NCBI GenBank assembly: GCA_964595645.1
Contig: CAZQQT010000007.1
Coordinates: 72,809 to 136,808, forward strand
Length of the DNA stretch: 64,000 nucleotides
Direction of reading: 5' to 3'
Source: an uncultured Thermococci archaeon
GTDB lineage: Archaea > Methanobacteriota_B > Thermococci > Methanofastidiosales > B48-G16
The notes under the pieces were generated by a model, which did no database searches, was not told the origin of the DNA, and worked only from the letters and a program-made list of their open reading frames with translations. The position numbers and the translations under genes were made by a program. Shown here piece after piece: positions 2,449-48,524 of this stretch. Within the stretch, counting starts at the first letter, position 1. Each line of letters begins with the position of its first letter.

Positions 2449-5430
2449 TTGGATGACGATATCAAATTCAACCTAAATTATTTTGATGGTGGACACACAC
2501 ATCACGTTCTTAATAAAAGGGGTTATAAAGAGATTAAATTGAATCAAGACCCTCAGTTAAAGAGAAAATTTATCAATTGGTGTAAGACTAATGATTTACC
2601 CGAACTGCTTGAAAGAGTAAAAGACCTTGATAAAGGAAAAGAAAGAAAGGATATTATACTCTTAGTACCTCCAAATTACGGTCCGTCCGAAGAATATCAT
2701 TTACTGGGAGCATCCTCGTTTTCGAAGAGATACACTGAAGAAATGAATAGCAGGATAGAAACCACTGGATACATGTACTCGGGTTGGAATTACAGTATTA
2801 AAGAAGAGAAGAAAAAACATCTCTCCGTGCCCTTCCGGTTATATGTAGGTGAGAAGAAAAAGGTAAAGGGCTATTTCCGTGTAGTTGACTTTTGGACTGA
2901 TATTGAAGAAGATAAAGACTTAGAGAAGACATTAAATGATGAAAACTGGAGAGATCATTTTCGTGATGATGAACCTACTATAGATCCTACTCAGTGGAAC
3001 AGTACCCATGAAGAAATGTGGAAAACAAGAACGATCTTCAAATATGACAAAGTCGAAAGATTCTCAGAAGAAAAAGACCTAAGTGAGTTTGAAAATATTG
3101 AAGGCGAAACACCTCAATTCTATCAAAAAGGATTTGACGTAATTTGTGAAAAGAAAGAGGAGGGAAGAAAGATGGATAAAGATATGAATATTATAGGCGT
3201 AGTGGCTAAAGTTGCATGGTCTCATAACAGATGGAAGGGGTTTGATGAGGAGGGATATCGAAAAAGAGAAAATTATAACTATAAATTTGTGAGAATAAGC
3301 GGTCACGCCCATGAATGGTGGGGATTTTATGAAGATTTCGATAAAGATTACTACTATGGACATGTGGCGATGAGTGAAAGAACACCTAAGAAAAAGTTTA
3401 AAGACGCCTTAATACCTGTTATATCATATAACATTAATAATCGGGAGTTCTATCTTGTAGGTTTTTTTGGAAATGCAAAATTTACTGGAGAAAAATATAA
3501 AACAGAAACGAAAATGAAAAAACTACTCTCAGAAGACTGTATTGATAGTTTGCCACAAATTGCTGATAAATTTGATCAGGAGGATTGGAAGGATGCTGCA
3601 GAACGTATGAGAGACTTTATAAAAAACAAAATAAAGTATGACGGGAATATTAAAGCACCGAAAAAATTTTCTACAGTATTTGAAGAGGAAGCATATATTA
3701 AAATCGATCCACAGGAGGATCTAACCGTGGGGAGACTCGGACAGGCTCCCTACATGTACATCGGACATACCGAAACAGTCCCTCCAGAAAATGTTCATAA
3801 GTTACTGCTTAAAGCAAAAGAAAGACACGAGACGATCTTAAAAAATACTCAAGATGTAAATAAGGAGGAAGAAATTGAGGAGATAATTGAAAAAATTGAT
3901 CGTGTGGTAGATAAATACTTTTCCGAAGTGGAAAGAACTGCAGGACCCATAAATTATTACCTTGAAGTCTCTGCAGCGCCTTGGCAGGGTCCGATAGGAA
4001 AAATATTGGAAACAGGAGTAGATAGTAAATACAAAATGATGCAGGAATTAACTCCTGGAGACGTTGTAATTCATTATAGACCAAGCAGAGTAAGAAAGTA
4101 TCCCCAACGATTTGTTGGCTATTCGAAAGTTAAGAAGAGCGCAAAAACATTTAGTAGAGATGAATTGGTGCAATTTTTAAAGAATCGTGACATTTTGAGT
4201 GAAAAGTATAGAGAATTTGCAGAAGAAGGTGTTCTAAGCTATGATAAAGCTTGGATAGTGGAATTAAAAGATTTTAAAGAATTTAAAAATGAGAAAAAAC
4301 CAAGCTACCACACTGTAAAAGATCAACTTGGATTTAAGGTTACTGAAGGCTACCTTCATTCGTTAGATAAAGAAATTGCTGAAGGAATAATTAATCTAAG
4401 CGATCTAAAAGAACCGAACGAGAGAAAGGAAAAATGGAAAGACAAAAAACAAGATCTTGGCTACGAGATAGAGAGAAAATTCACTATCAATGGCCTATTT
4501 TTCCCCGAAGGAGAAAGGGAGACTCTTGAAAAACAGATCACTACGGCAATAAGAAACAGGAAACATATCATTCTCATTGGAGCTCCTGGAACGGGAAAAT
4601 CAAAGCTGGCAAAGGAAATTTGTGAATTCTATGTGGGGAATAAAAACTACATTATGAGTACTGCAACGTCTGACTGGTCAACGTTTGATACGATCGGTGG
4701 GTACCATCCTGACAAAGAAGGAAAACTGAATTTCAAAAGTGGTATATTCTTGCGATGTTTCAGGGACAGTGAAACTCTTAACCCTGAGGATCGATGGTTA
4801 ATAATAGATGAAATAAATCGGGCGGACATAGATAAAGCGTTCGGTTCATTATTCTCAGCCCTTACTGGAGACACCATCACACTGCCATTTGAGGTTGCAG
4901 ATGAACAGATAGAGGTCGTAGGAGATCCAAATGATGACGATGAGATTCAAGGGAACAAATTCATAATCCACCCAGACTGGCGGATTATCGCGACGATGAA
5001 CACCTATGACAAAGCTTCACTCTATGAAATGAGTTACGCATTTATGAGACGGTTTGCGTTTGTTCCTGTAGATGTCCCCAATGAAATTGACGAAGATCTA
5101 ATTCGAGAATATTTAGACATTTGGCATCTTGAAAGAGAGGAAAACGCTGAGTTAGTTGATAAAGTAACGAAGCTGTGGAAAACTATCAACAACTCCAGGA
5201 AAATAGGTCCGGCGATCATTAAAGATATCTATGAGTACCTCACTGAAGAGGATGATCTCACCAGCGCCGTGATCATGTACGTGTTGCCACAGTTTGAGGG
5301 ATTGCCAGAGGACAAAATATGCACCTTTGTGGATGAGTTAGATATTATTGAAGCAAAAGATGAACTCATAGATTTCTGCGTGGATTTCTTTGGAATTGCA
5401 CGAGAAAAATTCAAAAAATCATCTGAGTGA
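2449..5430 (+). CDS. McrB-family AAA+ GTPase with a long N-terminal extension. The specificity subunit of a McrBC-like modification-dependent restriction system.
   Basis: C-terminal third has Walker A (ILIGAPGTGKSKLAKEI) and the McrB-type signature (WLIIDEINRADIDKAFGSLFSAL). The first ~650 aa contain at least one PUA/EVE-like segment (...YYLEVSAAPWQGPIGKIL...GDVVIHYRPSRVRKYPQRFVGYSKV) and a Trp-rich segment (AWSHNRWKG...HEWWGFYEDF). TTG start. Confidence 0.6.
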   Translation: MDDDIKFNLNYFDGGHTHHVLNKRGYKEIKLNQDPQLKRKFINWCKTNDLPELLERVKDLDKGKERKDIILLVPPNYGPSEEYHLLGASSFSKRYTEEMNSRIETTGYMYSGWNYSIKEEKKKHLSVPFRLYVGEKKKVKGYFRVVDFWTDIEEDKDLEKTLNDENWRDHFRDDEPTIDPTQWNSTHEEMWKTRTIFKYDKVERFSEEKDLSEFENIEGETPQFYQKGFDVICEKKEEGRKMDKDMNIIGVVAKVAWSHNRWKGFDEEGYRKRENYNYKFVRISGHAHEWWGFYEDFDKDYYYGHVAMSERTPKKKFKDALIPVISYNINNREFYLVGFFGNAKFTGEKYKTETKMKKLLSEDCIDSLPQIADKFDQEDWKDAAERMRDFIKNKIKYDGNIKAPKKFSTVFEEEAYIKIDPQEDLTVGRLGQAPYMYIGHTETVPPENVHKLLLKAKERHETILKNTQDVNKEEEIEEIIEKIDRVVDKYFSEVERTAGPINYYLEVSAAPWQGPIGKILETGVDSKYKMMQELTPGDVVIHYRPSRVRKYPQRFVGYSKVKKSAKTFSRDELVQFLKNRDILSEKYREFAEEGVLSYDKAWIVELKDFKEFKNEKKPSYHTVKDQLGFKVTEGYLHSLDKEIAEGIINLSDLKEPNERKEKWKDKKQDLGYEIERKFTINGLFFPEGERETLEKQITTAIRNRKHIILIGAPGTGKSKLAKEICEFYVGNKNYIMSTATSDWSTFDTIGGYHPDKEGKLNFKSGIFLRCFRDSETLNPEDRWLIIDEINRADIDKAFGSLFSALTGDTITLPFEVADEQIEVVGDPNDDDEIQGNKFIIHPDWRIIATMNTYDKASLYEMSYAFMRRFAFVPVDVPNEIDEDLIREYLDIWHLEREENAELVDKVTKLWKTINNSRKIGPAIIKDIYEYLTEEDDLTSAVIMYVLPQFEGLPEDKICTFVDELDIIEAKDELIDFCVDFFGIAREKFKKSSE

Positions 5431-6263
5431 AGATAATGAAGGCAGGAGCTAAAACATTATTGGATGATATCGCTGAAGATTTCGTTCAGTATCTCAAAAG
5501 TGGTAATTTAAACATTAAATCGTTTTCTAAAAGGATAGATCCTACCCTCAACATCGATAATATTGAAAAATTGCTGAGGATACACTTTGTACTCACAGAA
5601 CAACGAGGAGAACACGGTGTTGGAGTAATTGATTTTATTGACAACCTCTCTGAAAGGATACGACGAATAAAAACGACGGTGAAAAAGACAAGAACGTTAT
5701 TCAGAGGAAAGGTGCGAGGAAAAATATGTTGGAAAGATACACTGCGGTATCGGTACAACTCAAATCCAAAGGATAGTACTCTTTTCGTCTGTGACAGACG
5801 GGAAAAAAATTACGAAATCTCAGAGAACCTAGTACTGAAAAGACTCCTTCAAATTATCCATGAGATTGTGTATACCGATCTACGAGTCGCGCTTGAAAAA
5901 GAGTACGAGTGGATCGGGGAATGGGCGTCGGAGGAAAAAAACCTAGAGAAAACGTTGAATCGGATATTCTTTAGAAATGTCTATCTGAGAAGAATTGATC
6001 TGACAGACGTGAAAGTCACTAATAGAATGATCAGTAGAGCGAAACGATCGAGACAGCCACTGTACAGAGAAGCAGCTGTGCTCCTCTCGCAGTATAGGGA
6101 GCTGATGAATTACGAGTTTGATCCGGAAGAGGCAAAAAACCTTCTGAAAAATACCTTCATCAACCCGGAGAAAACGGAGGTACTGTTTGAGCTGTACTGG
6201 ATAATTAAAATCATAAAAAAATCACTTTACCGATCCGAAGTTCCGGTTGATCGTTCCCGGTGA
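5427..6263 (+). CDS. McrC-like subunit, N-terminal fragment. Start overlaps the McrB stop.
   Basis: Position immediately 3' of the McrB-like gene with a GTGA overlap. Size and weak McrC-like features. It ends at a TGA that the next ORF (-1 frame) overlaps by 17 nt. Confidence 0.4.
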   Translation: MKIMKAGAKTLLDDIAEDFVQYLKSGNLNIKSFSKRIDPTLNIDNIEKLLRIHFVLTEQRGEHGVGVIDFIDNLSERIRRIKTTVKKTRTLFRGKVRGKICWKDTLRYRYNSNPKDSTLFVCDRREKNYEISENLVLKRLLQIIHEIVYTDLRVALEKEYEWIGEWASEEKNLEKTLNRIFFRNVYLRRIDLTDVKVTNRMISRAKRSRQPLYREAAVLLSQYRELMNYEFDPEEAKNLLKNTFINPEKTEVLFELYWIIKIIKKSLYRSEVPVDRSR

Positions 6264-6807
6264 GAATGTGGTAGCAGAATGGGTATCCGACGACTCTACA
6301 TACAGGATCTACCACGATTCCTGTGGGAGTTTTAAGTTCAAAGAGAGTATTGCATGGCTTAATGTTAATGCACAACTAAAAGACAAAGATAACTATCTTG
6401 GTCGGGAATTGCAAGTGATAGACATGCTGGAAAAAATGACGGGGAAGGGGTCGCAGGACAGTCTGTGGGGTGGCAGACCGGATATCGTACTCGAAAAATA
6501 CGATGAGAACGGTGACATTGTGTCAGTGCTAATAGGTGAGGTTAAATACACGGACAGCAAGAATTACGCGATTCAGGGCCTCAAAGAACTACTCGAATAT
6601 ATCGCATTGATCAAAGAAGGTGAGAACTACAAACTACGCTATGAGGATTTGTTCGAAAATATAGACGCAGTGAAGGGATGTTTATTCCTCGATGCGATCG
6701 CTGACTGGGAGATCGAAGAAGAAAAGAACATCTCAGTAGTGATGTTTGGTGAGGATTCTACCACGTTAAAAAACGTTATAGAGGGAGTGAAACGTGACTC
6801 GCGTTGA
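6247..6807 (+). CDS. McrC-like subunit, C-terminal PD-(D/E)xK nuclease fragment
   Basis: Nuclease core motif (GRPDIVL...VSVLIGEVKY) typical of the McrC catalytic domain. It continues the upstream ORF in another frame (278 + 186 aa, close to a normal McrC length). Confidence 0.45.
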   Translation: MIVPGENVVAEWVSDDSTYRIYHDSCGSFKFKESIAWLNVNAQLKDKDNYLGRELQVIDMLEKMTGKGSQDSLWGGRPDIVLEKYDENGDIVSVLIGEVKYTDSKNYAIQGLKELLEYIALIKEGENYKLRYEDLFENIDAVKGCLFLDAIADWEIEEEKNISVVMFGEDSTTLKNVIEGVKRDSR

Positions 6808-7186
6808 CCGTGCAAAAAACCGAAACATCATTGATATGGCACTCTCGTTTTCTGCGATGACAAGAATCTTTGAGAAAGGATCCACCGAAAAAGTACGGAA
6901 GAAGTTCTACAAGGATATTGACAAATTCTTCAGTATGCACCACGAAGAAGCTTCAACGAAAACAAACTGGACAAAAAAGTACTATATCGTTGCATTTTTA
7001 GAACTCAAGTATCCTCCAATTGATAGCACTAACTACAGAGAGTATGAAGCAGAAATCCAAAACAACATGCACTACCGCCGCGGAGATTTCGAGCGACACG
7101 ATAAAAGTTTTATCCTGAAAGGAACAAAGAACAGCGGGTGGCTTGAGAACCCAATCCGAATCGACGCGGGGGAGACGAGGAACTAA
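6794..7186 (+). CDS. Hypothetical protein (130 aa) in the defence island
   Basis: ORF overlaps the preceding stop. No recognisable motif. Confidence 0.3.
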   Translation: MTRVDRAKNRNIIDMALSFSAMTRIFEKGSTEKVRKKFYKDIDKFFSMHHEEASTKTNWTKKYYIVAFLELKYPPIDSTNYREYEAEIQNNMHYRRGDFERHDKSFILKGTKNSGWLENPIRIDAGETRN

Positions 7187-7441: not shown

Positions 7442-8623
7442 TTGAAGGAAATTCCTATGAATAAAAATCTGGTTCAAAATTTGTATGGCGAATATGAAGA
7501 AAAAATAGATTCAATCATAAAAGAACATGGTGAAGAAGACGGTTTTATAACGGAAGGAAAGATGTGGTGGGACTATTACAAAGAGTTAATAGACGAAACG
7601 TTGGACAAGATTAAAAACGGCGAATTGACAGAAAAAGATGCTAAAAAGTTTTATAAAACTTTTGGATTTGGTCCCAAACTTTACGGCCGCACATTTATCG
7701 AAAATGGGTTATCTAGCATAGAAAAGTTATTTCTCTTCTTAGCCGATGGTGATATTCCTGCGGAAAGAAAAATCGCTGAAGTAGTAGAAGATCCAGAAAG
7801 TGAAAACTATTTTAGAGGCGTAGGTATCAACTTTGTTACTCTCTTCTTAACGACTTTTTTCCCTAAAAAATACGTGCAATGGAATAGGCAAACAGATGGA
7901 GCTTTGGAATTGTTAAAGATCTATCCGGAGAAGGAAAGAGGAGAGAAAAAATCTGAGTTCTATTCAAAAATAAATAGTGTCTGCAAAGAGATCGGTAGAA
8001 CTGTGGATGTCAATTTTTTACCGAAGATTGATAACTTCCTTTACTGTCTAAACAAAGGATATATTGGAACAGAAATAGTTGAACCTGAGTACGAAAAGGA
8101 AGCAAAGAAAAAGGAAGAACTTGAAGAAAAAGAACTGAAAACGGAAGAGGTAAGAACCCATACGAAAATGATGTACTATCTTATAAAAATAGGATTAAAG
8201 AAAAACTATAATGTGTGGGTTGCTAAAAATGACAGAAATAAAGAATATAGGGAAGAAAAATTTTCAGACCTCTGTTTAAGCGAAATACCAAATTTTACAG
8301 GACCCGATACATTAGCAATCGCAAAGTATATAGATGTGATATGGTTTAGAAAAAATACTTTACATCCTGTCCGTTTTTTTGAGATAGAACACACCACAAC
8401 AATTTATTCTGGATTATTGCGATTAAACGATGTTGCAGTGGATTATCCTATTGGCAAAGCAACGATTGTCATTCCGGAAGAAAGGATTAATTTATTTGAA
8501 ACACAGATAGATAGACGAACCTTCAAAGTGGGCACCGATTTATCGGATGTATGTGACTATTTAACTTACGGAGATCTAAAAAAGTGGTATGAAGCAGTAA
8601 ATATTGATTCAAAATACTCATAG
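7442..8623 (+). CDS. Hypothetical protein (393 aa). The C-terminal ~150 aa have possible restriction-endonuclease-like (Hjc/Mrr-type) features.
   Basis: C-terminal segment ...NYNVWVAKNDRN...GPDTLAIAKYIDVIWFRK(x12)FFEIEHTT... resembles a D...(D/E)x(K/H) nuclease core. The N-terminal ~240 aa are unrecognised. Confidence 0.35.
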   Translation: MKEIPMNKNLVQNLYGEYEEKIDSIIKEHGEEDGFITEGKMWWDYYKELIDETLDKIKNGELTEKDAKKFYKTFGFGPKLYGRTFIENGLSSIEKLFLFLADGDIPAERKIAEVVEDPESENYFRGVGINFVTLFLTTFFPKKYVQWNRQTDGALELLKIYPEKERGEKKSEFYSKINSVCKEIGRTVDVNFLPKIDNFLYCLNKGYIGTEIVEPEYEKEAKKKEELEEKELKTEEVRTHTKMMYYLIKIGLKKNYNVWVAKNDRNKEYREEKFSDLCLSEIPNFTGPDTLAIAKYIDVIWFRKNTLHPVRFFEIEHTTTIYSGLLRLNDVAVDYPIGKATIVIPEERINLFETQIDRRTFKVGTDLSDVCDYLTYGDLKKWYEAVNIDSKYS

Positions 8624-8783: not shown

Positions 8784-8797
8784 TAAATTTTAAATAG
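8784..8797 (+). promoter_or_regulatory. Candidate archaeal TATA box (ATAAATTTTAAATA) ~40-50 nt upstream of the hsdM start
   Basis: AT-rich box at the expected distance. An AGGAGGAGG ribosome-binding site lies at 8823-8831. Confidence 0.2.
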
Positions 8798-8836
8798 AAT
8801 CTAGTGGAATAATAACAAAGAGTAGGAGGAGGAATA

Positions 8837-10363
8837 ATGCAAAAAAAACTAGGAAAAATGACACTTGATAGGCTTGAATCACATTTATGGGAGTCTGCAA
8901 ACATTTTGAGAGGAAGTATCGACTCATCTGACTACAAGAATTATATTTTTGGTCTACTGTTTCTGAAACGGCTGAGTGATGTATTCGAAGAGAAACAAGA
9001 AGAAATCAGGAAAAATCATGGAGAAGAATTTATCGAAGATAGAGACTTCCATGAGTTTTATGTGCCTGAGAGAGCCCGCTGGGACAACATCAAAGAAAAA
9101 ACACAAGACATTGGTGCAGAACTAAACAAAGCATTTGAAGTCTTGGAGGAAGAAAACAGTCTTTTAGAGGGAGTATTAGTCAGCATTGACTATAACGATA
9201 AAGAACGGCTACCTGACAACGTGCTAGAAGAACTCATTCAACATTTCACAACATATGGGTTGGGGAACAAGGATCTGGAGGATCCCGATCTGTTAGGCAG
9301 AGCCTACGAATACCTCATCCGACAGTTTGCCGACGATGCAGGGAAAAAAGGAGGTGAGTTTTACACACCTCGAGGCGTGGTTAAACTGATAGTGGAGATA
9401 CTGGATCCGAAGGAAGGAATGAGAATCTACGACCCCTGTTGCGGATCCGGTGGAATGCTGATATACTCTGCAAAGCATTTAGAAGAGAATGGTCACAGCC
9501 CTTCGGAAATATCGCTGTACGGACAGGAACGGAATCTGAATACCTGGGCCATCTGCAAGATGAACATGTTGCTTCATGGGTTATACGATGCAAAAGTAGA
9601 GAAGGGAGATACCATGCGGGATCCAAAGTTCGTGGAGGAAGGAACATTGCAGCAGTTCGATATTGTGGTCGCAAATCCTATGTGGAACCAGAGTTCGTGG
9701 AGCAAAGAGTACCTCAAAAATGCCGAGCCGTATGGGCGCTTCTCTTATGGACTTCCACCAAAGAACTCGGCGGACTGGGCGTGGATACAACACATGCTGG
9801 CCAGCACACACAAAAAGGGGAAGGTCGGCGTTGTTTTGGATAACGGTGTGCTGTTCAGAAGCAGAAGTGAGGGTAAAATCAGGGAGAAGGTGATAAAAGA
9901 CGATCTCATTGAAGCCGTCATTGCCCTCCCACCAAATCTATTCTACAACACATCGTCTCCGGGAACGATCCTCATTCTCAACAAGGACAAACCTACCGAG
10001 CGAAAAGATAAAGTCATCTTCGTGTATGCCGAGGAGGAATACAGAGAAGGAAGTGCACAGAATTTCTTGGAAGAAGAGCACATCCAGAAGATCGTGGATG
10101 CTATCGAAGATTATGAAGATCAAGAGAGATTCTGCAGAGTCGTTGGATATGAAGAGATCGAGAAGAACGACTTTAATTTAAATGTTCCCAGGTATGTGGA
10201 TACTATTGAGCCGGAGGAACCGATAGATGTGAACGAAGCATGGGCTGAGTTGAAAGAAGTTGAGCAGGAAAGAGACGAGATTACGAGTGAGATGAACGGA
10301 TATCTGGAGGAGATCGGGTATGATTACTCTATGGTTGAGGGAAGTGGTGGGAAAGAAAAATGA
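8837..10363 (+). CDS. hsdM: Type I restriction-modification system, N6-adenine DNA methyltransferase subunit HsdM
   Basis: N-terminal HsdM_N region (LWESANILRGS...YKNYIFGLLFLKRLSD). AdoMet-binding motif I (IYDPCCGSGGML). Catalytic NPMW(N) motif IV (VVANPMWNQ). Confidence 0.9.
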   Translation: MQKKLGKMTLDRLESHLWESANILRGSIDSSDYKNYIFGLLFLKRLSDVFEEKQEEIRKNHGEEFIEDRDFHEFYVPERARWDNIKEKTQDIGAELNKAFEVLEEENSLLEGVLVSIDYNDKERLPDNVLEELIQHFTTYGLGNKDLEDPDLLGRAYEYLIRQFADDAGKKGGEFYTPRGVVKLIVEILDPKEGMRIYDPCCGSGGMLIYSAKHLEENGHSPSEISLYGQERNLNTWAICKMNMLLHGLYDAKVEKGDTMRDPKFVEEGTLQQFDIVVANPMWNQSSWSKEYLKNAEPYGRFSYGLPPKNSADWAWIQHMLASTHKKGKVGVVLDNGVLFRSRSEGKIREKVIKDDLIEAVIALPPNLFYNTSSPGTILILNKDKPTERKDKVIFVYAEEEYREGSAQNFLEEEHIQKIVDAIEDYEDQERFCRVVGYEEIEKNDFNLNVPRYVDTIEPEEPIDVNEAWAELKEVEQERDEITSEMNGYLEEIGYDYSMVEGSGGKEK

Positions 10364-11871
10364 GAATCCTCTTGGATACGAACATATTGATATATCGGGA
10401 ATCAAACCAGATTCTTTCTGAGGACATCCAAGAGCTGACAAAAATACTGAATCGAGGTGACTTTGATATTCTAATTCACCCCGCAACTTTTGATGATATT
10501 AGTAAAGACGGGTATGAAAAAAGAAAAAGGATTATGGAATCTAAGTTCAAAACATATTCTACATTAGAAAAACCTCCGAACCCATTGGAAGATCAAGAAT
10601 TTTTAGATCGCGTTGAATGGTATTCACATCCCGAGGACGAGATTGACAATAAAATTCTTTATGCAGTATGCAGAAATGCAGTTGATTTTTTAATCACTGA
10701 AGATCATGGGATACATCACAATGCTAAGGAGATTGGTATTGATGAACGTGTTCTTCTTGCACAAGACGCTTTGAAATTATTTGAACAAAAGGAAGAAAAA
10801 CCTCCGAATGTACCTCCATCGTTGGAAAAAAATTATGTTTACAATTTGGACATTTCCGATCCTATTTTCGATAGCTTAAAAAGAGATTATCCGGATTTCG
10901 AGGATTGGTTTGAGAAAATATCGAAAGAGGGAAGGAAATGTTATGTTAACCGTAGAAAAGACGGTAAAGTAGGTGCTTTGTTGATATATAAACTGGAAGA
11001 AGAAGATATGACCAACACAAGTCCACCTTTACCATTGAAAAGGAGATTAAAAATATGTACCTTAAAAGTCACTCATGTCGGTTATAAGATAGGAGAACTA
11101 TTCATTAAAACCTCAGTAGACATGGCATTGAAAAAAGGTTGTGAACAAATCTATCTCACACATTTCACAGAACCCGACGATAGATTGGTATCATTGATAA
11201 ACGATTTTGGGTTTTACAAAGGAGCGGTTAAACATTGGGATGATGGTCGAGAAGAAGACATTTTTTTGAAAGAACTATTTGCCGGAGATGACGTAGAACA
11301 ATTATCCCCGCTAGAGATCTCTGAAAAATATTATCCAACATACTATCATGGAAGAAATGTTCGCAAATTTATTGTACCAATAGTCCCAAAGTACCACGAT
11401 AGGCTATTCACCGACTGCGGGGGACGACAAACCTTTTTACATGAACATGCTGGCGAGTTCGTAACGGAGGGAAACACAATAAAAAAAGCTTATTTAAGCC
11501 ATTCAAAAACCGGAATGGTAAGACCAGGCGATATTCTGCTCTTTTATCGTTCTCATGATCAACAAAGAATAACTTCTCTCGGTGTTGTGGAAAAAGTTCA
11601 TGATGAACTTACAAATGCAGGTGAAATAGCCAGTATTGTGGGTAAACGTACTGTCTATTCGTTAAGAGAAATAGAAGAAATGTCAGAAAAAGAAACAAAG
11701 GTAATTTTGTTTAGACATCACTTTCACTTGCCTCTTCCACTAGATTATAAATTCTTGAGGAAACAATCCATAATCAAAGGGCCTACAAGGTCTATAACTA
11801 AAATCGACCACGATAACTATTTAAAAATGGTTGAAAAAGGTGGTATAGATGAACGTTTTACTGTCGATTAA
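10360..11871 (+). CDS. Three-domain fusion inserted in the hsd operon: N-terminal PIN-domain nuclease, central GNAT-like acetyltransferase fold, C-terminal PUA/ASCH-like domain
   Basis: PIN signature (MRILLDTNILIY...DFLITED). GNAT-like block (GALLIYKL...LKICTLKV...GYKIGELFIKTSVDMALKKGCEQIYL). C-terminal PUA-like block (GMVRPGDILLFYRSHDQQRITSLGVVEKV). ATGA overlap with the hsdM stop. Confidence 0.5.
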   Translation: MRILLDTNILIYRESNQILSEDIQELTKILNRGDFDILIHPATFDDISKDGYEKRKRIMESKFKTYSTLEKPPNPLEDQEFLDRVEWYSHPEDEIDNKILYAVCRNAVDFLITEDHGIHHNAKEIGIDERVLLAQDALKLFEQKEEKPPNVPPSLEKNYVYNLDISDPIFDSLKRDYPDFEDWFEKISKEGRKCYVNRRKDGKVGALLIYKLEEEDMTNTSPPLPLKRRLKICTLKVTHVGYKIGELFIKTSVDMALKKGCEQIYLTHFTEPDDRLVSLINDFGFYKGAVKHWDDGREEDIFLKELFAGDDVEQLSPLEISEKYYPTYYHGRNVRKFIVPIVPKYHDRLFTDCGGRQTFLHEHAGEFVTEGNTIKKAYLSHSKTGMVRPGDILLFYRSHDQQRITSLGVVEKVHDELTNAGEIASIVGKRTVYSLREIEEMSEKETKVILFRHHFHLPLPLDYKFLRKQSIIKGPTRSITKIDHDNYLKMVEKGGIDERFTVD

Positions 11872-12253
11872 ACCAAAATATGTTGAAAAGATCGCCGAGG
11901 GTGAGAAGAAACTGGAGTTCAGAAAGGTGATCTTCAAGGACGAGAACAGGCCGGACACCATATACATATATTGCACCTCTCCTGTCAAGAAGATAATCGG
12001 CTATTTCACCACCGGTGAGATCTTCGAGGACGACCCGGCCGAGCTCTGGGACAGGTTCCATAACCTTGCAGGTATAAGTGAAGAGGAGTTCTTCGATTAC
12101 TTCTCGGGAAAGGAAAGAGGATACGCCATCGGTATCGAGGACTTCAACCAGTTCGACAACGCTATCGACCCTTACGAAGTGATCCCGGGATTCACACCAC
12201 CCCAGTCCTTCTGCTATATGAACGACGATCTCCAGAGGTATCACGATGTCTGA
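11849..12253 (+). CDS. ASCH-domain (PUA-like superfamily) protein
   Basis: Highly typical ASCH N-terminus (MNVLLSIKPKYVEKIAEGEKKLEFRK) and core (GYFTTGEIF...PQSF). It overlaps the upstream stop and the hsdS start. Noticeably more GC-rich than the flanking genes. Confidence 0.65.
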   Translation: MNVLLSIKPKYVEKIAEGEKKLEFRKVIFKDENRPDTIYIYCTSPVKKIIGYFTTGEIFEDDPAELWDRFHNLAGISEEEFFDYFSGKERGYAIGIEDFNQFDNAIDPYEVIPGFTPPQSFCYMNDDLQRYHDV

Positions 12254-13568
12254 GTACAAGGAAGTGCAGATCGGGCCCAAGACGGTGGAGATACCTGTGG
12301 AGTGGGATAAAGTTAAAGTTGAAGGTATTTTCGAGATAATTAAAGGGCAAAGTTATAAAAGTAAATATTATGCTGATGAAGAGGATGGGTTTATATTCAT
12401 TAATTTAAAATGTATAAACAAGAAAGGAGGATTTAATAAAGAAGGTATAAAATTTTATCAGGGACCTTTTGCAGAGAAAAATTTTGTTGAACCAGGAAAT
12501 TTGATAATGGCCAATACAGATTTAAACCGTGACGCAGAAGTAGTAGGATATCCTCTTTATGTACCAGAATTTAATAATGAAAAAAAAATAGGAATATCTA
12601 TGGATGTCTCAGTGTTAAGAAAAAAGAACAGTTGTGTAATTGATAAATATTTTTATTATTTATTTAGCAATGAGATTATTCACGGTGCAGTACAAAATTT
12701 TGCTGAAGGATCAACTGTATTACATCTTGATTTAGATTCTGTAAAAAATTTAACAATCCCCCTCCCACCACTCCCCGAACAGCGCCGTATCGCAGAGATC
12801 TTATCTACCGTGGACGATGCCATCCAGAAGACGGATGAGGTCATCGAGAAGGCGGAGAGGTTGAAGAAGGGGCTGATGCAGGACCTGTTGACCAAGGGGA
12901 TAGGGCACGATGAGTTTAAGGAAGTGCAGATCGGGCCGAGATCTATTAAAATCCCCAAAGAATGGGATATTAAGAATTTACAACCGTCCAATGGGATTGT
13001 AAAAAAAGTTACTGATGGATCCCATTACTCACCACCCCAAATAGAAGAGGGTGAATATCTTTACGCAACCGTTACGAACTTTAGCGATAGGGGTATAGAT
13101 TATGGAACATGTAATAAAATAAATGAAGAAGAATATCTTAAGATGGTAGAAGGGGGTAATAAACCTCTGAAAGGAGATGTACTTTTCAGTAAAGATGGGA
13201 CTATTGGAATCACTGATGTATATGAAGATGATGAAGATGTGGTATTACTTTCGTCCATTGCAATCATTAGGCCTATACAAAATCAAGTAAATCCAATTTA
13301 TTTGAAATATTTTCTATCTTCAAAAGAAATCGAACATCAAATACGTTCTTTTAAAAGTGGAACTGCGATTCGCCGTGTAGTTCTTAGAGATATCAAAAAA
13401 TTCAAAATTCCACTACCATCTCTACCCGAACAGCGCCGCATCGCAGAGATTCTATCAAATATCGACAGTAAAATCCAAAAAGAAAAATCCTATAAACAAA
13501 ACCTCCAGAAACTCAAAAAAGGATTGATGCAGGACCTGTTGACAGGAAAAGTGAGGGTGAATACATGA
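12246..13568 (+). CDS. hsdS: Type I R-M specificity subunit HsdS with two target-recognition domains
   Basis: Two-fold internal repeat architecture. Each TRD is preceded by (E/Y)KEVQIGP(K/R) and followed by the conserved coiled-coil LP(P/S)LPEQRRIAEILS...KKGLMQDLLT(K/G). Confidence 0.85.
   Translation: MSEYKEVQIGPKTVEIPVEWDKVKVEGIFEIIKGQSYKSKYYADEEDGFIFINLKCINKKGGFNKEGIKFYQGPFAEKNFVEPGNLIMANTDLNRDAEVVGYPLYVPEFNNEKKIGISMDVSVLRKKNSCVIDKYFYYLFSNEIIHGAVQNFAEGSTVLHLDLDSVKNLTIPLPPLPEQRRIAEILSTVDDAIQKTDEVIEKAERLKKGLMQDLLTKGIGHDEFKEVQIGPRSIKIPKEWDIKNLQPSNGIVKKVTDGSHYSPPQIEEGEYLYATVTNFSDRGIDYGTCNKINEEEYLKMVEGGNKPLKGDVLFSKDGTIGITDVYEDDEDVVLLSSIAIIRPIQNQVNPIYLKYFLSSKEIEHQIRSFKSGTAIRRVVLRDIKKFKIPLPSLPEQRRIAEILSNIDSKIQKEKSYKQNLQKLKKGLMQDLLTGKVRVNT
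12771..12893 (+). repeat. hsdS central conserved region, copy A of an intragenic direct repeat (...ccgaacagcgccgtatcgcagagatc...ctgatgcaggacctgttgac...)
   Basis: Near-identical DNA to 13421..13545. Classic hsdS repeat that enables TRD shuffling. Confidence 0.7.
13421..13545 (+). repeat. hsdS distal conserved region, copy B of the intragenic direct repeat
   Basis: Matches 12771..12893 at DNA level. A second short repeat pair lies at 12249..12292 and 12912..12955 (gag t(a/t)(c/t)aaggaagtgcagatcgggcc). Confidence 0.7.
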
Positions 13569-16500
13569 CACAGGATTGGACTGAGTACCACCTGACGGAG
13601 AAACCAGCATTAGATCTTCTAGAAGAGCTGGGGTATACAGTCTACGATATCAATGAGACCTTTGAACGACCGGAACGAGACTTGTTGCGAGAGGTGCTGT
13701 TACTGAACAACGTACGGTCGGCGATTCAACGAATTAACCCATGGATCTCAGAGAATAACCTCAATAAAGCGGTGAACATGATCCGTCCCACAAGAATCCG
13801 GGCCGCTGGAATGATAGAAGCCAACGAGATCACCTACACCCGACTGGTCAAGTACATCTCAGTTCCTCAGGATCTGGGAAAAGGAAAAAAGAATCAGACG
13901 GTAAAGTACATTGATTTTGAGCATCCTGAAAACAACGAGTTCTTGGCACTGAACCAGTACAAGGTAAAAGGACACGAGAAAATAAAACCGGACATCGTGA
14001 TCTTTGTTAACGGCATTCCCATCGGCGTCATCGAGTGCAAAAACGAGACTACCTGCGATGATCCAGAGGACGATGCCATCGATCAGTTGCGACGGTATCA
14101 GAACATTCGGTACGAGAATGAGAATGAAGGTGCAGAGCAACTGTTTTATCCTAACCAAATACTTGTAGCAGCCTGGCGGGATTCTGCCTCCTCCTGTGCC
14201 ATTGGTGCACCAGCCCGACAGTTCAAAGCGTGGAAGGATCCCTATCCACACACAAAAGAAGAGATTCGATCCGTAGTCGGAAGAAACGTTACCCTCCAAG
14301 ATATACTCCTCTTCTCCCTCTTCAAAAAAGATCGTCTGCTAGATCTCATTCAGAACTTCATCGTGTTTGAACGCGCAGGAAACAAGCTCATCAAAAAACT
14401 GGCGCGGTACCAGCAGTATCGAGCAGTAACCAAAGCTGTCGAACGGATAAAGAACGCAGACACACTGATTGATCGGAGTGGTACTGTCTGGCACACTCAG
14501 GGATCGGGGAAGTCTCTCTCCATGCTCTTTTTGGCCCTCAAACTGCGACGAATGGAAGGACTGGGAAATCCCACACTTCTCGTAGTAACAGACAGAATCG
14601 ATCTCGACGACCAGATCACCGGTACCTTCGAACGGTGCGGATTTCCAAATCCAATCCAAGCGCAAGATACAGACAATCTCAAAGAGTTGCTCAGAAGAAA
14701 CGTCGGAAAAACGATTATGACGACGGTGCACAAATTCCAGGAACGTGTGAAGGAGAAATACCCTGTTCTCACTGAAGATACGAATGTGTTTGTAATGGCC
14801 GACGAGGCACACAGGACACAGTACAAAGACTTGGCGGCAAATATGCGAAGAGCCTTGCCCAACGCCTGCTACTTGGGATTCACGGGGACGCCTATCGACA
14901 AAGAAGAGAGAAGCACACTGCGGACCTTCGGATCCTATATCGACACCTACACCATCGATGAGTCCGTTGACGATGGAATGACGCTCAATATCCTTTACGA
15001 GGGAAGAATCCCTGAGTTACGAGTTGAAGGACGCGATCTCGACGATTTATTCGACAGAATATTCAAAAACTACTCCAACGAAGAGAAGAAAAAAATAAAA
15101 GAGAAGTACGCAACTGAACGAGACATTGCTGAAGCAAAATCCAGAATTGAACGGATATGTCTTGATATCATCGATCATTACGAATCAAAAATATATCCCC
15201 TCAAAGGACAGATAGTAACAGTGAGCAGAGAAGCAGCCGCCAGATACAAGGAAGCAATGGACAGGTTTAACGGACCTGAGTCTGCTGTGATCATCAGCAG
15301 TGATCAGAACGATCCGCCGCTTCTCAAGAAGTACCATACATCTGCTGGTGAACGAAAGCATCTTATTGAAACATTTAAAGATCCGGAAAGTAATCTCTGC
15401 CTCCTCATTGTCTGTGATATGCTGCTGACTGGATTTGACGCACCAGTAGAGCAGGTAATGTATTTAGACAAGCCGCTCAAAGAACATAATCTCCTGCAAG
15501 CGATTGCACGAGTGAACAGACGGTTTGAAGAGAAAAATTATGGTCTTATTGTGGACTACTATGGCGTGTTTGATTACCTCCAAGAAGCATTGGCCGTCTT
15601 CAATAAAAAGGATATAGAAAACGCTGTCACCCCCATCAAGGATGAAAAACCGAGGCTGGAGAGAACGTATAGACAGGTTATGCAGTTTTTTGAAGGAGTG
15701 GATCTTGATGACCTCGATGAGTGCATCCTAACCTTTAAAGACGAAGACAAACGACTGAAGTTCAAACGTGCTTTTAAAGCCTTTGCAAAGAGCATGGATA
15801 TCGTTATGCCCGATCCAATCGCGGATCCGTACCGTGAGGATCTCAAAACACTGGGGAAAATTTACAAAGCGGTGAGAAACCACTACCGTGACAGCTCTTT
15901 GGACATAAAGGGTGTTGGTGGGAAGGTAAAGCGGCTAATAGATGAACATATTCGCGCAACCGACATCAAAATACTCAATGAACCGGTCTCTATTCTTGAC
16001 AAAGAGGAGTTCGATCGTACTGTAGAAGAGCATGAAAATATTGAGACTAAAGCTAGTGAGATGGAACACGCAATCCGAAGTGAGATTAGTGTGAAAATGG
16101 AAGAGAACCCTGTCTTTTACCAATCGCTGAAAGAACGGTTAGAGGAAATTATCGAAAAGAGAGTCCAGGGAAGATTCACCTTTACCAAACAGTTAGAAGA
16201 AATGAGAGAGATAATCCACGAAATTCGAGATGTGAGGACAAAAGCCGAGAAGCTAGGATTGAATGAGCGAGAGTTTGCTCTCTACGAACTGCTCCTCGAC
16301 GAAAGAGAACATGAACGGGTGGAGACAGTGAGTGAGAGTACGGGAGCCTACCATCCTGGTGGTCCTGAACTGCATATTAATAAAAAGGTTAGAGATTTAT
16401 CCAAACAATTAATGGACGACCTTGAAGACATGAGAGTCGTGGATTGGAAGGAAAAGAAAATGATTCTAAAAGAAATGAGAAAAGTGATCAAACTCACGTT

Positions 16501-16579
16501 GAGTGAGTACAAAGAATTCAAGAAAAATCTGGATAGCGTCACAACGAAAGTGATCAAACTCGCGAGGAATATCCTATGA
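13565..16579 (+). CDS. hsdR: Type I R-M restriction subunit HsdR (SF2 helicase/translocase plus N-terminal PD-(D/E)xK nuclease)
   Basis: Nuclease motif (PDIVIFVNGIPIGVIECK). Helicase motif I (TQGSGKSLSM), motif II (DEAH: VMADEAHRTQ) and later motifs (TGFDAP, QAIARVNR). 1004 aa. ATGA overlaps at both ends. Confidence 0.9.
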   Translation: MTQDWTEYHLTEKPALDLLEELGYTVYDINETFERPERDLLREVLLLNNVRSAIQRINPWISENNLNKAVNMIRPTRIRAAGMIEANEITYTRLVKYISVPQDLGKGKKNQTVKYIDFEHPENNEFLALNQYKVKGHEKIKPDIVIFVNGIPIGVIECKNETTCDDPEDDAIDQLRRYQNIRYENENEGAEQLFYPNQILVAAWRDSASSCAIGAPARQFKAWKDPYPHTKEEIRSVVGRNVTLQDILLFSLFKKDRLLDLIQNFIVFERAGNKLIKKLARYQQYRAVTKAVERIKNADTLIDRSGTVWHTQGSGKSLSMLFLALKLRRMEGLGNPTLLVVTDRIDLDDQITGTFERCGFPNPIQAQDTDNLKELLRRNVGKTIMTTVHKFQERVKEKYPVLTEDTNVFVMADEAHRTQYKDLAANMRRALPNACYLGFTGTPIDKEERSTLRTFGSYIDTYTIDESVDDGMTLNILYEGRIPELRVEGRDLDDLFDRIFKNYSNEEKKKIKEKYATERDIAEAKSRIERICLDIIDHYESKIYPLKGQIVTVSREAAARYKEAMDRFNGPESAVIISSDQNDPPLLKKYHTSAGERKHLIETFKDPESNLCLLIVCDMLLTGFDAPVEQVMYLDKPLKEHNLLQAIARVNRRFEEKNYGLIVDYYGVFDYLQEALAVFNKKDIENAVTPIKDEKPRLERTYRQVMQFFEGVDLDDLDECILTFKDEDKRLKFKRAFKAFAKSMDIVMPDPIADPYREDLKTLGKIYKAVRNHYRDSSLDIKGVGGKVKRLIDEHIRATDIKILNEPVSILDKEEFDRTVEEHENIETKASEMEHAIRSEISVKMEENPVFYQSLKERLEEIIEKRVQGRFTFTKQLEEMREIIHEIRDVRTKAEKLGLNEREFALYELLLDEREHERVETVSESTGAYHPGGPELHINKKVRDLSKQLMDDLEDMRVVDWKEKKMILKEMRKVIKLTLSEYKEFKKNLDSVTTKVIKLARNIL

Positions 16580-17313
16580 AATCTACAGAAAAAGTCTCCC
16601 TTGGAAAAACAACAATTCACTACAAAATTGTTCGGAGTAAGAGAAAGACGTTGGGAATTAAAGTTGGACTTGAAGAAGGAGTAATTGTTAGAGCACCGAC
16701 TCACTTACCGGTGGACGTTATACGAAAAAAGGTACAAGAAAAGGGGGACTGGATTCTACAAAAACTTGAAAAAATGGGTGAAATTGAGCCGAAACCAGCT
16801 CCTAAAGAATTTATGAGTGGAGAAAAATTGCCGTATTTAGGAAGAAGATATAGGTTAAAGGTTAATAAGGAAAATAATAGTTCTAAAGAAGTTGATGTGA
16901 GATTATATCGTGGTAAATTTTATATTGGCCTCAGCTCTCAGATAAACGAGAGTGAGAGAAGGACGAAAATACGGCAAGCGCTAATCAAATGGTATAGATC
17001 GCACGCACAAAAAAGAATCGCAGAAAGAGTAGAGAAGTATCAATCCAAAATTGGTGTAACGCCTGCGAAAGTAAAGGTAAAGCATCAAAAGAAACGGTGG
17101 GGGAGTTGCTCCAACAAGCGCAACCTGAACTTCAACTGGAGAATTATCATGGCCCCGATATCGCTTGTTGACTACGTGGTAGTACACGAACTTACTCATC
17201 TTAAGTACCCACATCACTCAAAAGAGTTCTGGGATACTATTGCATCAATTCTTCCTGACTATAAAGAAAGACGTGAAAGGTTAAGGGTAAAGGGAAACAC
17301 GTTAGAATTTTAG
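16576..17313 (+). CDS. DUF45/YgjP-like (WLM/M48-type) zinc metallopeptidase
   Basis: HExxH motif in the typical context (DYVVVHELTHLKYPHHSKEFW). Translationally coupled to hsdR. This family recurs next to hsdR genes. Confidence 0.7.
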   Translation: MKSTEKVSLGKTTIHYKIVRSKRKTLGIKVGLEEGVIVRAPTHLPVDVIRKKVQEKGDWILQKLEKMGEIEPKPAPKEFMSGEKLPYLGRRYRLKVNKENNSSKEVDVRLYRGKFYIGLSSQINESERRTKIRQALIKWYRSHAQKRIAERVEKYQSKIGVTPAKVKVKHQKKRWGSCSNKRNLNFNWRIIMAPISLVDYVVVHELTHLKYPHHSKEFWDTIASILPDYKERRERLRVKGNTLEF

Positions 17314-17370: not shown

Positions 17371-18081
17371 GTGTGTGGTATGAAAAATTCATTCACGCTT
17401 CGTGAACTGCCAGAAGAAGAAAGACCAAGAGAGCGTCTTCAAACTCTTGGAGTGAATTATCTCTCAATGCAAGAACTATTAGCCTTAGTAATTGAAAGGG
17501 GAAGTAGAGGAAAGAATGTGTTGACTATTGCCCAAGAACTCCTCGCTACGTTCGGGAACCTCTCCAAAATCAAAGAAGCTTCCATAGAACAACTTCAACA
17601 GGTCGATGGAATCGGGATTGCTACTGCATGTAAGCTAAAGGCCTCGCTAAAATTAGGTGAAAAAGCATTGATCGTGCACGAACGGTATGGACAAAAAGTG
17701 GAATCACCGGAAAATATATTCCATTTACTTAAAAATGACCTGGGAAACAAAAAGAGAGAACATTTTAAAATAATCTTATTGAACACGAAAAAACATATTA
17801 TAGCCATTGAAAATATCTCTATCGGATCTTTAAATAGTAGCATTGCACACCCACGAGAGATATTCCGTTCTGCTATTCAACATGCAGCGGATTCTGTAAT
17901 TTTGGTGCATAATCATCCTTCGGGTGATCCTAGTCCAAGTGATGACGATATTGAGCTCACTGAAAGACTCATAAAGGTGGGAGATATTTTGGGTATAAAA
18001 GTAGTAGACCATGTGATTATCGCTGGTAAGTCCTTCGTGAACCTTCGGGGGGAGGAAGAAACTGCTGGAATATGGAAATAA
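17371..18081 (+). CDS. radC: RadC-like JAB/MPN-domain protein (HhH plus JAMM metalloprotease motif)
   Basis: HhH region (LQQVDGIGIATACKL). JAMM motif (ILVHNHPSGDPSPSDDD). Confidence 0.75.
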   Translation: MCGMKNSFTLRELPEEERPRERLQTLGVNYLSMQELLALVIERGSRGKNVLTIAQELLATFGNLSKIKEASIEQLQQVDGIGIATACKLKASLKLGEKALIVHERYGQKVESPENIFHLLKNDLGNKKREHFKIILLNTKKHIIAIENISIGSLNSSIAHPREIFRSAIQHAADSVILVHNHPSGDPSPSDDDIELTERLIKVGDILGIKVVDHVIIAGKSFVNLRGEEETAGIWK

Positions 18082-47258: not shown

Positions 47259-48524
47259 TCATTTCTCCATTCGTCGTTTGAGCGATCGTGCATGCCCATA
47301 TAACCCTTCCGTCTCTGCAAGCATCCTCGCTATACTACCTATCTTTTCAATTCCCGTTTTCGTCACGCGGAGAGTTGTCTGAAGCTTAACGAAATCTATG
47401 GCACTCAAGCCGCCGGTATACCGCGCACCGGTATTAGTAGGGAGTGTATGGTTGAGTCCGCTGCTGTAATCACCGAGAGCTTCGGCAGCGAAGGATCCGA
47501 CAAAGAGCGATCCGTAGTTTCGTAGGCATGGGATGTACTGGTCGGGATCGCGTAGCTGAAGTTCCAGATGTTCAGGTGCCCTTTTGTTCGCAATTTTAAC
47601 TGCTTCGTCTATTCCCTCGGTAAGAATCATCGCCCCGTGCGCTATCGCCTTCTCAGCAGTGGATCGTGTGGGGAGCCCCTCGAGCTGGTGTTGAAGCTCC
47701 GTTGCAACCCGCTCCGCCAAGGTTACCGATGGTGTAACTAAGAGTGGTAATGCATTGTCATCGTGTTCCGCTTGCGCAAGCAAATCGGCTGCAACGATCG
47801 CCGGATCCGCTGTCTCATCGGCAATGATCATGAGCTCGGTGGGGCCTGCGAGGAAATCGATGCCTACAGCACCAAGCACCTGTTTTTTTGCCGCTGTGAC
47901 GTACGTATTTCCAGGTCCCACGATTTTATCCACCTTTTTGATAGATTCTGTTCCGTAGGCCATAGCCCCTATCGCCTGGACACCTCCCACTTTATACAGT
48001 TCGTCCACGCCGACACGGGCTGCTGCGGTGAGAAGTGCTGGATGGATGGTACCCTCATAGGTTGGGGGTGAGCAGACAGCGATCTCCTTCACTCCTGCAA
48101 CAACAGCTGGAATGCAGCACATAAGCAGTGTAGAGAGAAGCGGTGCCTGCCCGCCGGGAACGTAGACACCCACACGATCTATCGGGATAATTTGCTGGCC
48201 GGCGAAGACCCCAGGGGCGATCTCCATTTCAAATGCGGTGAGCTGGGAGAACTGACGTTCGGCGAACTGTGTGATGTTCCTCGCAGCTGCATCGATTGCG
48301 TCCGCCACAGACGTATCTGTCACGTGAACTGCCTCTCTGAACTCGTGACCCTCTACTCGAAGTTTTTCCAAGACCACATGGTCAAACTCGAGGGTATAGC
48401 GCTTCACTGCCCTATCTCCTTTCTCTCGTACCTCTTGGAGTATTGTTCTCACTGTATCCAATTCCTCAGGCTCCTTGTACGTAAAGAACTCATCCGTGAG
48501 TTCATCTGCAGTAACAATCCTCAT
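47259..48524 (-). CDS. hisD: Histidinol dehydrogenase
   Basis: 421 aa. Conserved HisD regions (..GGQAPLLSTLLMC.., ..AEHDDNA..). Overlaps the upstream gene by 4 nt. Confidence 0.9.
   Translation of the reverse strand: MRIVTADELTDEFFTYKEPEELDTVRTILQEVREKGDRAVKRYTLEFDHVVLEKLRVEGHEFREAVHVTDTSVADAIDAAARNITQFAERQFSQLTAFEMEIAPGVFAGQQIIPIDRVGVYVPGGQAPLLSTLLMCCIPAVVAGVKEIAVCSPPTYEGTIHPALLTAAARVGVDELYKVGGVQAIGAMAYGTESIKKVDKIVGPGNTYVTAAKKQVLGAVGIDFLAGPTELMIIADETADPAIVAADLLAQAEHDDNALPLLVTPSVTLAERVATELQHQLEGLPTRSTAEKAIAHGAMILTEGIDEAVKIANKRAPEHLELQLRDPDQYIPCLRNYGSLFVGSFAAEALGDYSSGLNHTLPTNTGARYTGGLSAIDFVKLQTTLRVTKTGIEKIGSIARMLAETEGLYGHARSLKRRMEK

Follow-up and report, generated by a model that had tools for sequence, protein, structure and literature searches.

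Gene content and layout of the locus

We describe here six genes on the forward strand of a 64,000-nucleotide (nt) stretch of contig CAZQQT010000007.1 from an uncultured Thermococci archaeon (this whole stretch is the window below), in which a type I restriction-modification (R-M) system carries a two-gene cassette, PDC-M11, between its methyltransferase and specificity genes. The gene set was taken from an open reading frame (ORF) listing that begins each ORF at the first start codon after a stop. The six genes run head to tail with zero intergenic space (8837-17313, + strand):

8837-10363 (+): hsdM, type I N6-adenine DNA methyltransferase subunit, 508 amino acids (aa)
10360-11871 (+): gene A, PDC-M11A, a PIN / GNAT-like / EVE (PUA-like) fusion, 503 aa; 4-nt overlap with the hsdM stop codon
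11849-11871 (+): A/B dual-coding overlap, 23 nt
11849-12253 (+): gene B, PDC-M11B, a single-domain ASCH protein, 134 aa
12246-13568 (+): hsdS, specificity subunit, 440 aa, two target-recognition domains; 8-nt overlap with the ASCH gene
13565-16579 (+): hsdR, restriction/translocase subunit, 1004 aa; overlaps hsdS by 4 nt
16576-17313 (+): DUF45/YgjP-like (SprT-family) zinc metallopeptidase, 245 aa; overlaps hsdR by 4 nt

All five junctions overlap, in gene order by 4 nt (ATGA), 23 nt, 8 nt (ATGTCTGA), 4 nt (ATGA) and 4 nt (ATGA). The first-pass annotation of this DNA had counted seven genes, all joined by ATGA/TAATG-type overlaps, and had read into them an unusual gene order and strict stoichiometric co-expression. 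Its gene and domain labels were all right, as judged by profile searches (Pfam, TIGR, PADLOC), and the overlap at every junction stands, but only three junctions are of the ATGA type and none is of the TAATG type; six genes lie within 8837-17313, and a seventh, radC, falls beyond them after a 57-nt gap. The observation is in this sense partly confirmed, and the interpretation placed on it is partly supported. An antisense ORF of 140 aa opposite the ASCH gene (11858-12280, - strand) is almost certainly spurious; it exceeds the ASCH gene in length and displaced it in a greedy longest-ORF call.

The embedded cassette belongs to the PDC-M11 family

Protein A is matched end to end by the PADLOC profile for PDC-M11A (4.7e-160) and displays the PIN / GNAT-like / EVE architecture of that family, and protein B, encoded directly downstream, is matched over its full length by the profile for PDC-M11B (1.6e-48), as an ASCH protein. 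Pfam alone returns a weak PIN_3 match in A and a weak ASCH match in B. Protein B is homologous to the Zymomonas protein ZmASCH (5gus/5guq, 1.6e-15), and its octapeptide G18-x-K20-x-x-E23-x-R25 (GxKxxExR) is kept in at least 96% of 67 homologues. Both cassette proteins resemble ZmASCH, B by sequence and the C-terminal PUA-like domain of A by structure; the idea that this domain of A and the ASCH protein are sequence paralogues was rejected, the similarity between them being undetectable. ZmASCH is reported to be a single-stranded RNA ribonuclease (PMC5615036), and ASCH proteins have been reported as deacetylases, or erasers, of N4-acetylcytidine in tRNA (preprint 10.64898/2026.02.27.708502). 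Unlike PDC-M11B, ZmASCH (PDB 5GUQ/5GUS) has no known R-M linkage. Neither cassette protein has a PrrC or ABC ATPase match in Pfam, NCBIfam or PADLOC. Nor does the partner of A look like a type II toxin-antitoxin antitoxin with a DNA-binding domain of the ribbon-helix-helix (RHH), helix-turn-helix (HTH) or AbrB kind: it is a 134-aa ASCH protein with no HTH. HTH-ASCH fusions are known from other clades, as Bell et al. 2020 and Matelska et al. 2017 report.

The same two-gene architecture, A then ASCH, is found in the (PIN)-GNAT-EVE + ASCH operons treated by Iyer et al. 2013, by Matelska et al. 2017 (as PIN_15/PIN_17) and by Bell et al. 2020. Set against those operons the present pair differs in nothing substantive, its ASCH protein being without an HTH fusion and unfused to HsdS; an ASCH fused to HsdS is described in Methanohalophilus by Bell et al. 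2020 (PMC7641849). The placement of hsdM, two further genes and hsdS that had been called unusual was likewise already on record, a PIN-GNAT-EVE + ASCH pair inside type I R-M being described in the same paper (PMC7641849) and catalogued as PDC-M11. The pair has at least 1971 homologues. Relatives of the cassette come overwhelmingly from methanogens and other archaea, and protein A is about 50% identical to most family members and 64-66% identical to the nearest (P0002, P0003).

A scan of one genome per species gave 80 loci, and the counts of gene neighbours are on 79. Genes A and B are adjacent in 68 of these; where no B was detected, the locus in most cases breaks off no more than a few hundred bases from gene A. 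At two loci from Methanovorans and Methanolobus metagenome-assembled genomes (L063 2348-4048 and L064 11505-13202), the ASCH protein is fused to a further GNAT domain, giving 566 aa, and the fusion genes keep the 23-nt overlap with gene A.

A deeply conserved 23-nt overlap joins the two cassette genes

The A/B overlap was surveyed through an alignment of the ASCH genes, in which the conserved Met column marks the start of B. Of 66 homologous loci, archaeal and bacterial, 60 have an overlap of exactly 23 nt in which B starts with ATG, and the nucleotide consensus of the overlap is nearly fixed (GGNATHGATGAACGTTTTACTNTCNATTAA). The ATG of B lies inside the conserved Asp-Glu codons of A, and 6 to 10 nt upstream of it the Gly-Gly codons of A provide GGTGG, a Shine-Dalgarno-like element of the form GGNGG. 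The 23-nt overlap is a property of the cassette and not of the "super-operon" first proposed; it is the only deeply conserved overlap of the operon, and the best evidence in the locus that translational coupling matters. Excerpts of the literature on (PIN)-GNAT-EVE + ASCH pairs make no mention of it, and its near-universal length offers a concrete handle on how A and B are balanced. A programmed +1 frameshift yielding an A-B fusion was also considered: no fused homologues of about 640 aa occur among the best 120, and a frameshift is not needed, because the dual coding of two conserved peptides suffices to account for the nucleotide conservation.

The cassette recurs within and outside restriction-modification operons

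The immediate neighbours of the cassette are mixed. Methyltransferases, YhcG nucleases and HsdS are found beside it, as are methionyl-tRNA synthetase, topoisomerase VI and purine-biosynthesis genes. Of the 79 loci, 20 have a type I or DUF1156/DUF499 system within 8 kb (about 25%, with the enlarged query set); where each side of the cassette is covered by 3 kb or more, the proportion is 9 of 34. Bell et al. 2020 describe type I R-M (HsdR/M/S) operons and the COG1743/DUF1156-DUF499-SNF2 system as close associates of the pair (PMC7641849), and both associations were independently reproduced among our loci. Embedded cassettes sit with different hsdM families (25-49% identity) and at various positions, which include S-A-B-M, A-B-S-M and M-x-A-B-x-S-R-DUF45. 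Because no R-M neighbour is detectable for about three quarters of the cassettes, and because partner families and positions vary in this way, A and B are not obligate R-M partners: the cassette is an autonomous mobile module and no obligate subunit of the restriction enzyme.

Among the nearest relatives, P0002 and P0003, the order is hsdM, optionally one extra gene, A, B and hsdS; in the recovered parts, HsdM identity is 78-86%. The 8-nt ASCH/hsdS junction recurs in L088-L090 and in L015, and is identical in the P0002 loci; the hsdM/A junction in L088 and L089 is an 18-nt gap, with no overlap. The composite is therefore inherited within the closest lineage, as the shared gene order in P0002 and P0003 and the shared 8-nt junction in P0002 attest, though its origin lies in the insertion of an autonomous module. 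In Methanothrix and other Methanotrichaceae (L074-L080), a PIN-less GNAT-EVE protein (matching residues 106-502) plus ASCH accompanies a DUF1156 methyltransferase/DUF499/SNF2 system, and in L074, L075 and L080 the cassette is flanked by the DUF1156 methyltransferase gene, which it follows directly on the 3' side, and by DUF499.

The hsdM-hsdS-hsdR-DUF45 backbone

Around the cassette, HsdM matches Pfam N6_Mtase (1.4e-112) and HsdM_N (7.5e-32) as well as TIGR00497 (259 bits against a cutoff of 242.75), and its N6-adenine methyltransferase domain carries motif I as DPCCGSGG and motif IV as NPMW (residues 280-283, window 9674-9685) in place of the usual NPPF/Y/W. We rejected NPMW as a sign of an inactivated HsdM, since it is a conserved subfamily variant common to the HsdM of L003, L088 and Haloferax pHGLR3. 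HsdS has the two target-recognition domains and spacer repeat of its kind, with Pfam Methylase_S matching in two stretches (2.2e-37) and the LPEQRRIAEILS repeat occurring twice, and HsdR matches TIGR00348 hsdR (1.1e-165) together with Pfam HSDR_N, SWI2_SNF2, T1R_D3-like and T1RH-like_C, its translation showing the PD...ExK of a nuclease and the GSGKS and DEAH of a superfamily 2 ATPase/translocase. The DUF45 protein matches Pfam YgjP-like (PF01863, 1.5e-63), with HExxH present as HELTH. Judged by these matches, the backbone is a standard type I R-M system, apparently intact.

Because a literature search on DUF45/YgjP/COG1451/SprT proteins linked to type I R-M found nothing relevant, we turned to plasmid annotations for the DUF45-hsdR link. 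A tblastn search against 72,556 plasmids gave 569 records, from which ten phylogenetically spread matches were inspected (Bacillota, Alphaproteobacteria, Gammaproteobacteria, Cyanobacteriota, Bacteroidota, Deinococcota and Halobacteria). The DUF45 homologue adjoins a type I hsdR in nine of the ten, directly downstream and on the same strand in seven, and the 4-nt hsdR/DUF45 overlap is also present in Synechocystis pSYSX, Deinococcus and Roseicitreum; the hsdR-DUF45 order is thus the common one, and this part of the supposedly unusual order falls away. Haloferax gibbonsii pHGLR3 has the same hsdM-hsdS-hsdR-DUF45 order, with HsdM 58% and HsdR 49% identical to those of the window, but lacks the cassette, and its own hsdM and hsdS overlap by 4 nt. 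Other operons with this backbone order, such as that of Synechocystis pSYSX, differ from the present one in having either no cassette or other passengers (Fic, HigB, Shedu-like, DUF3800) between the hsd genes. Passengers such as Fic, HigB and DUF3800 match the pattern of embedded defence genes seen with PrrC and TgvAB and by Payne et al.

One may speculate that the DUF45 protein acts on the R-M system, for example through proteolytic control of HsdR, for which restriction alleviation mediated by ClpXP (PMC12707154) offers an analogy. On Geobacillus plasmid pEF60063-1 (L082, 7631-9714), a gene of the ArdC anti-restriction family, whose proteins contain a metalloprotease domain (PMC7213743), stands beside a DUF45 gene that is convergent with the type I operon, so that two metalloprotease-type genes flank one R-M system.

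Transcription, translational coupling and protein ratios

Two candidate expression signals precede hsdM:

8789-8796 (+): TTTAAATA, candidate TATA box of archaeal type, 41 nt 5' of the hsdM ATG; putative promoter element
8825-8832 (+): Shine-Dalgarno-like GGAGGAGG, after the TATA candidate and ahead of hsdM

The TATA candidate is the single match to TTTAWATA on the + strand between 8600 and 17313; the motif is enriched across the window (15 matches against 5.1 expected), and scans for TATA motifs and T runs are weak evidence. A scan for sigma-70 promoters and intrinsic terminators gave fewer sites than shuffled sequence and was set aside as uninformative, the host being archaeal. From this arrangement, one transcript with translational coupling can reasonably be inferred.

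Overlap chains are normal in this genome. Crude gene calls over the whole window gave 39 co-directional pairs, of which 18 overlap, the overlap being exactly 4 nt in 11, and the his operon (47259-53603, - strand), which includes hisD and hisC, comprises seven genes with six consecutive overlaps (4, 13, 7, 4, 4 and 4 nt). The overlap pattern of the R-M operon is for this reason no greater than the local background, a habit of the genome and not a signature of the operon. In most prokaryotic groups co-directional overlapping pairs make up about 15% of gene pairs (Huber et al., PMC6728339), and in Haloferax and E. coli termination-reinitiation couples their translation strictly (PMC6728339), strict coupling of this kind at short overlaps being reported for archaea (PMC6728339, PMC10666635). 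Short overlaps are also enriched among genes for heteromeric complexes (PMC10666635). Coupling does not, however, imply the strict stoichiometric co-expression that had been claimed, because the type I enzyme is R2M2S1 (as given in work on the V. cholerae type I system, PMC11411939) and because the levels of coupled downstream proteins may differ several-fold from those upstream (Huber et al., PMC6728339).

A mobile candidate defence cassette in a standard backbone

We read the locus, at a probability of roughly 70%, as a composite defence operon in which a standard hsdMSR-DUF45 backbone has received the mobile PDC-M11 cassette as an independent second layer of defence. The cassette would have been inserted exactly at the hsdM/hsdS junction, with short overlaps re-established on both sides. 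All six genes would most likely be transcribed from one promoter upstream of hsdM, and the downstream genes translated largely by termination-reinitiation, the overlaps reflecting operon compaction and not setting fixed protein ratios. The R-M enzyme would act as a first-line, methylation-based barrier, and the cassette as a second layer of a toxin-antitoxin-like or abortive-infection type, with the PIN RNase of A as the likely effector. The EVE domain of A and the partner ASCH protein may read or process modified or acetylated nucleic acid, ASCH restraining or reversing the action of A, and the ancient 23-nt overlap would tie the synthesis of ASCH to that of A. So viewed, the locus holds no unusual super-complex, as had been over-read from its layout, and instead a known mobile cassette in a standard backbone. 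As a compact, apparently intact natural example of an embedded PDC-M11, with a comparison set at hand (P0002 and P0003 with the cassette, Haloferax pHGLR3 without it), it is a reasonable starting point for a first experimental test of the widespread PIN-GNAT-EVE/ASCH pair.

Several points weigh against this composite-operon reading. The PIN assignment of A lies below the Pfam threshold (23.5 bits against a cutoff of 27), and a search of PDB sequences gave no match for the PIN region. Active GNATs bind the pyrophosphate of acetyl-CoA through a motif A of the form R/Q-x-x-G-x-G/A; in the PDC-M11A family the motif reads V-G-x-K-x-G, which departs from the active form. Because motif A is degenerate, in agreement with Matelska et al. 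2017, who likewise note a degenerate motif A in A-type proteins, any acetyltransferase activity of A is doubtful. The PDC candidates were derived by "guilt by embedding" and are described as untested (Payne et al., 10.1101/2024.01.29.577857), and according to Bell et al. 2020 none of such modules had been experimentally characterised at the time of writing (PMC7641849). Random placement near R-M would account, by a rough estimate, for about 1% of loci; the observed 25% or so is a strong enrichment, yet a minority, and because it far exceeds the figure estimated for chance, some functional interaction of A and B with R-M is plausible. Finally, the operon contains eight T5-T7 runs against about 4.7 expected, with T6-T7 runs at 10686, 11261 and 15686; these runs could act as partial archaeal terminators and make partial internal termination possible, and promoters inside its coding sequence are possible too.

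A tighter alternative takes up the view of the first-pass annotation; it is one in which the PIN-GNAT-EVE, ASCH and DUF45 proteins would be subunits or regulators of the type I enzyme and coupling would fix their ratios with HsdM, HsdS and HsdR, or in which, in a variant, the cassette would resemble PrrC kept latent by EcoprrI. Every junction does overlap, the cassette is strongly enriched near R-M (20 of 79 loci), the composite is conserved in the nearest lineage, the 8-nt ASCH/hsdS junction recurs in a distant Methanoperedens locus, and the ASCH-HsdS fusion of Methanohalophilus (Bell et al., PMC7641849) points the same way, as does the 10- to 100-fold better protection afforded by TgvAB within its type I cluster (PMC11411939). 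We nonetheless consider such an integrated machine unlikely: some 75% of cassettes have no detectable R-M neighbour, many of them lying beside housekeeping genes; position and partner R-M family vary; the hsdM/A junction of L088 and L089 is an 18-nt gap; overlaps are the norm in this genome; and coupling leaves ratios unfixed. The two precedents can be compared with PDC-M11 in the same light. Like PrrC in EcoprrI, the cassette places an effector gene (here a predicted one, RNA-targeting in PrrC) inside a type I operon, and EcoprrI supplies the conceptual model of a latent RNase guarded by R-M; the two are linked by analogy only, there being no homology, and PrrC is a single gene encoding an ABC-ATPase plus nuclease. 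PrrC is moreover almost exclusively embedded in type I R-M (10.1101/2024.01.29.577857), whereas PDC-M11 lies mostly outside R-M operons. TgvAB is, like PDC-M11, a two-gene cassette inside a type I operon, and has been shown to be an independent, complementary defence (PMC11411939); it differs in belonging to other protein families and in being an experimentally validated type IV, modification-dependent DNA restriction system.

A more specific, rather improbable proposal is that PDC-M11 is a toxin-antitoxin system based on reversible nucleic-acid modification, by analogy with DarTG. The GNAT-like domain of protein A might acetylate RNA, DNA or aminoacyl-tRNA at sites chosen by EVE, or the PIN domain of A might cleave such RNA, and ASCH might erase the mark, with the 23-nt overlap setting the A:B ratio; when embedded, the module could be kept latent by the R-M system, or sense its failure, as in PrrC/EcoprrI.

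In a further alternative, quite improbable in our view, EVE and/or ASCH would bind DNA or RNA modified with N6-methyladenine (or unmodified) and so link the PIN effector to methylation status, the outcome being a fail-safe of a post-segregational or anti-restriction-sensing kind, or else restriction that reaches modified invaders as well. PUA-like domains (YTH, EVE, SRA) are readers of modified bases, which favours such a role. So does the position of the cassette directly 3' of hsdM in the window, in L003, in L010 and in L088/L089, and directly 3' of a DUF1156 methylase in L074, L075, L076, L080 and L044, and Bell et al. propose that EVE-associated type I systems target modified DNA (PMC7641849). 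Most cassettes, however, have no adjacent methyltransferase, and the closest characterised ASCH relative, ZmASCH, acts on RNA (PMC5615036, 10.64898/2026.02.27.708502).

The start codons that define the overlaps are credible, because the N-termini match the family profile or the starts of homologues. The N-terminus of gene A, MRILLDTN, is the family start; Met stands at the start position in 96% of the ASCH homologues that were aligned; near-identical DNA to that encoding the HsdS start, MSEYKEV, opens the hsdS of L088; and the profile matches begin at residue 6 of HsdR (HSDR_N) and residue 24 of the DUF45 protein (YgjP-like). That the overlaps are an annotation artefact of most-upstream start choice, with the real genes lying apart, is barely credible given this fit for all five downstream genes, even if an ORF listing from the first start after a stop can over-extend ORFs and for that reason inflates overlaps to 32-62 nt in several related loci.

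Genomic island and neighbouring genes

From position 1 to about 18100 the GC content lies at 35-45%; immediately after that it is 52-57%. The sharp rise, from about 0.40 to about 0.55 between roughly 18100 and 18450, directly after radC, marks the right edge of an island whose left edge lies before the start of the window. An AAA_5 NTPase cluster and an NmeDI_C-like nuclease gene share this low-GC region; with these alongside, the low GC places the operon in a horizontally acquired defence island. Flanking genes encode a Methanosarcina-type beta-propeller repeat protein, a class II photolyase and an archaeal-type homoserine dehydrogenase. Together with the mainly archaeal relatives of the cassette, they make a methanogen-like archaeon the most likely host.

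Upstream in the same island (2449-7186, + strand), four overlapping ORFs encode proteins of 993 aa, with a C-terminal AAA_5 domain, and then 278, 186 and 130 aa, with overlaps of 4, 17 and 14 nt. They have no Pfam match other than AAA_5 and no meaningful PADLOC match, and may constitute an uncatalogued defence cluster. A 393-aa ORF follows (7442-8623, + strand) with an NmeDI_C annotation and a weak PADLOC match to a type II restriction endonuclease (1.9e-10); it has no adjacent methyltransferase besides hsdM, 213 nt downstream.

A co-oriented seventh gene follows the operon:

17371-18081 (+): radC (JAMM/JAB metallopeptidase family); no overlap, 57-nt gap after DUF45; likely true start ATG 17381

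Its product matches NF000642 RadC (238.8 bits against a cutoff of 180) and carries an HNHPSG motif. After DUF45 there is no T5 run before 18424, and radC is possibly co-transcribed as a seventh gene; the DUF45-radC gap contains a TATA-like TTTATAAA, some 30-35 nt ahead of ATG 17381, which may alternatively give radC its own promoter. A radC homologue with 39% identity lies directly after hsdR in another PDC-M11-containing type I operon (L041, 17256-17963), and a further one lies about 5.5 kb upstream of the cassette in L057 (2490-3429). Since radC is found near cassettes at these two loci as well, a second metallopeptidase family may be recurrently linked to PDC-M11/type I operons.

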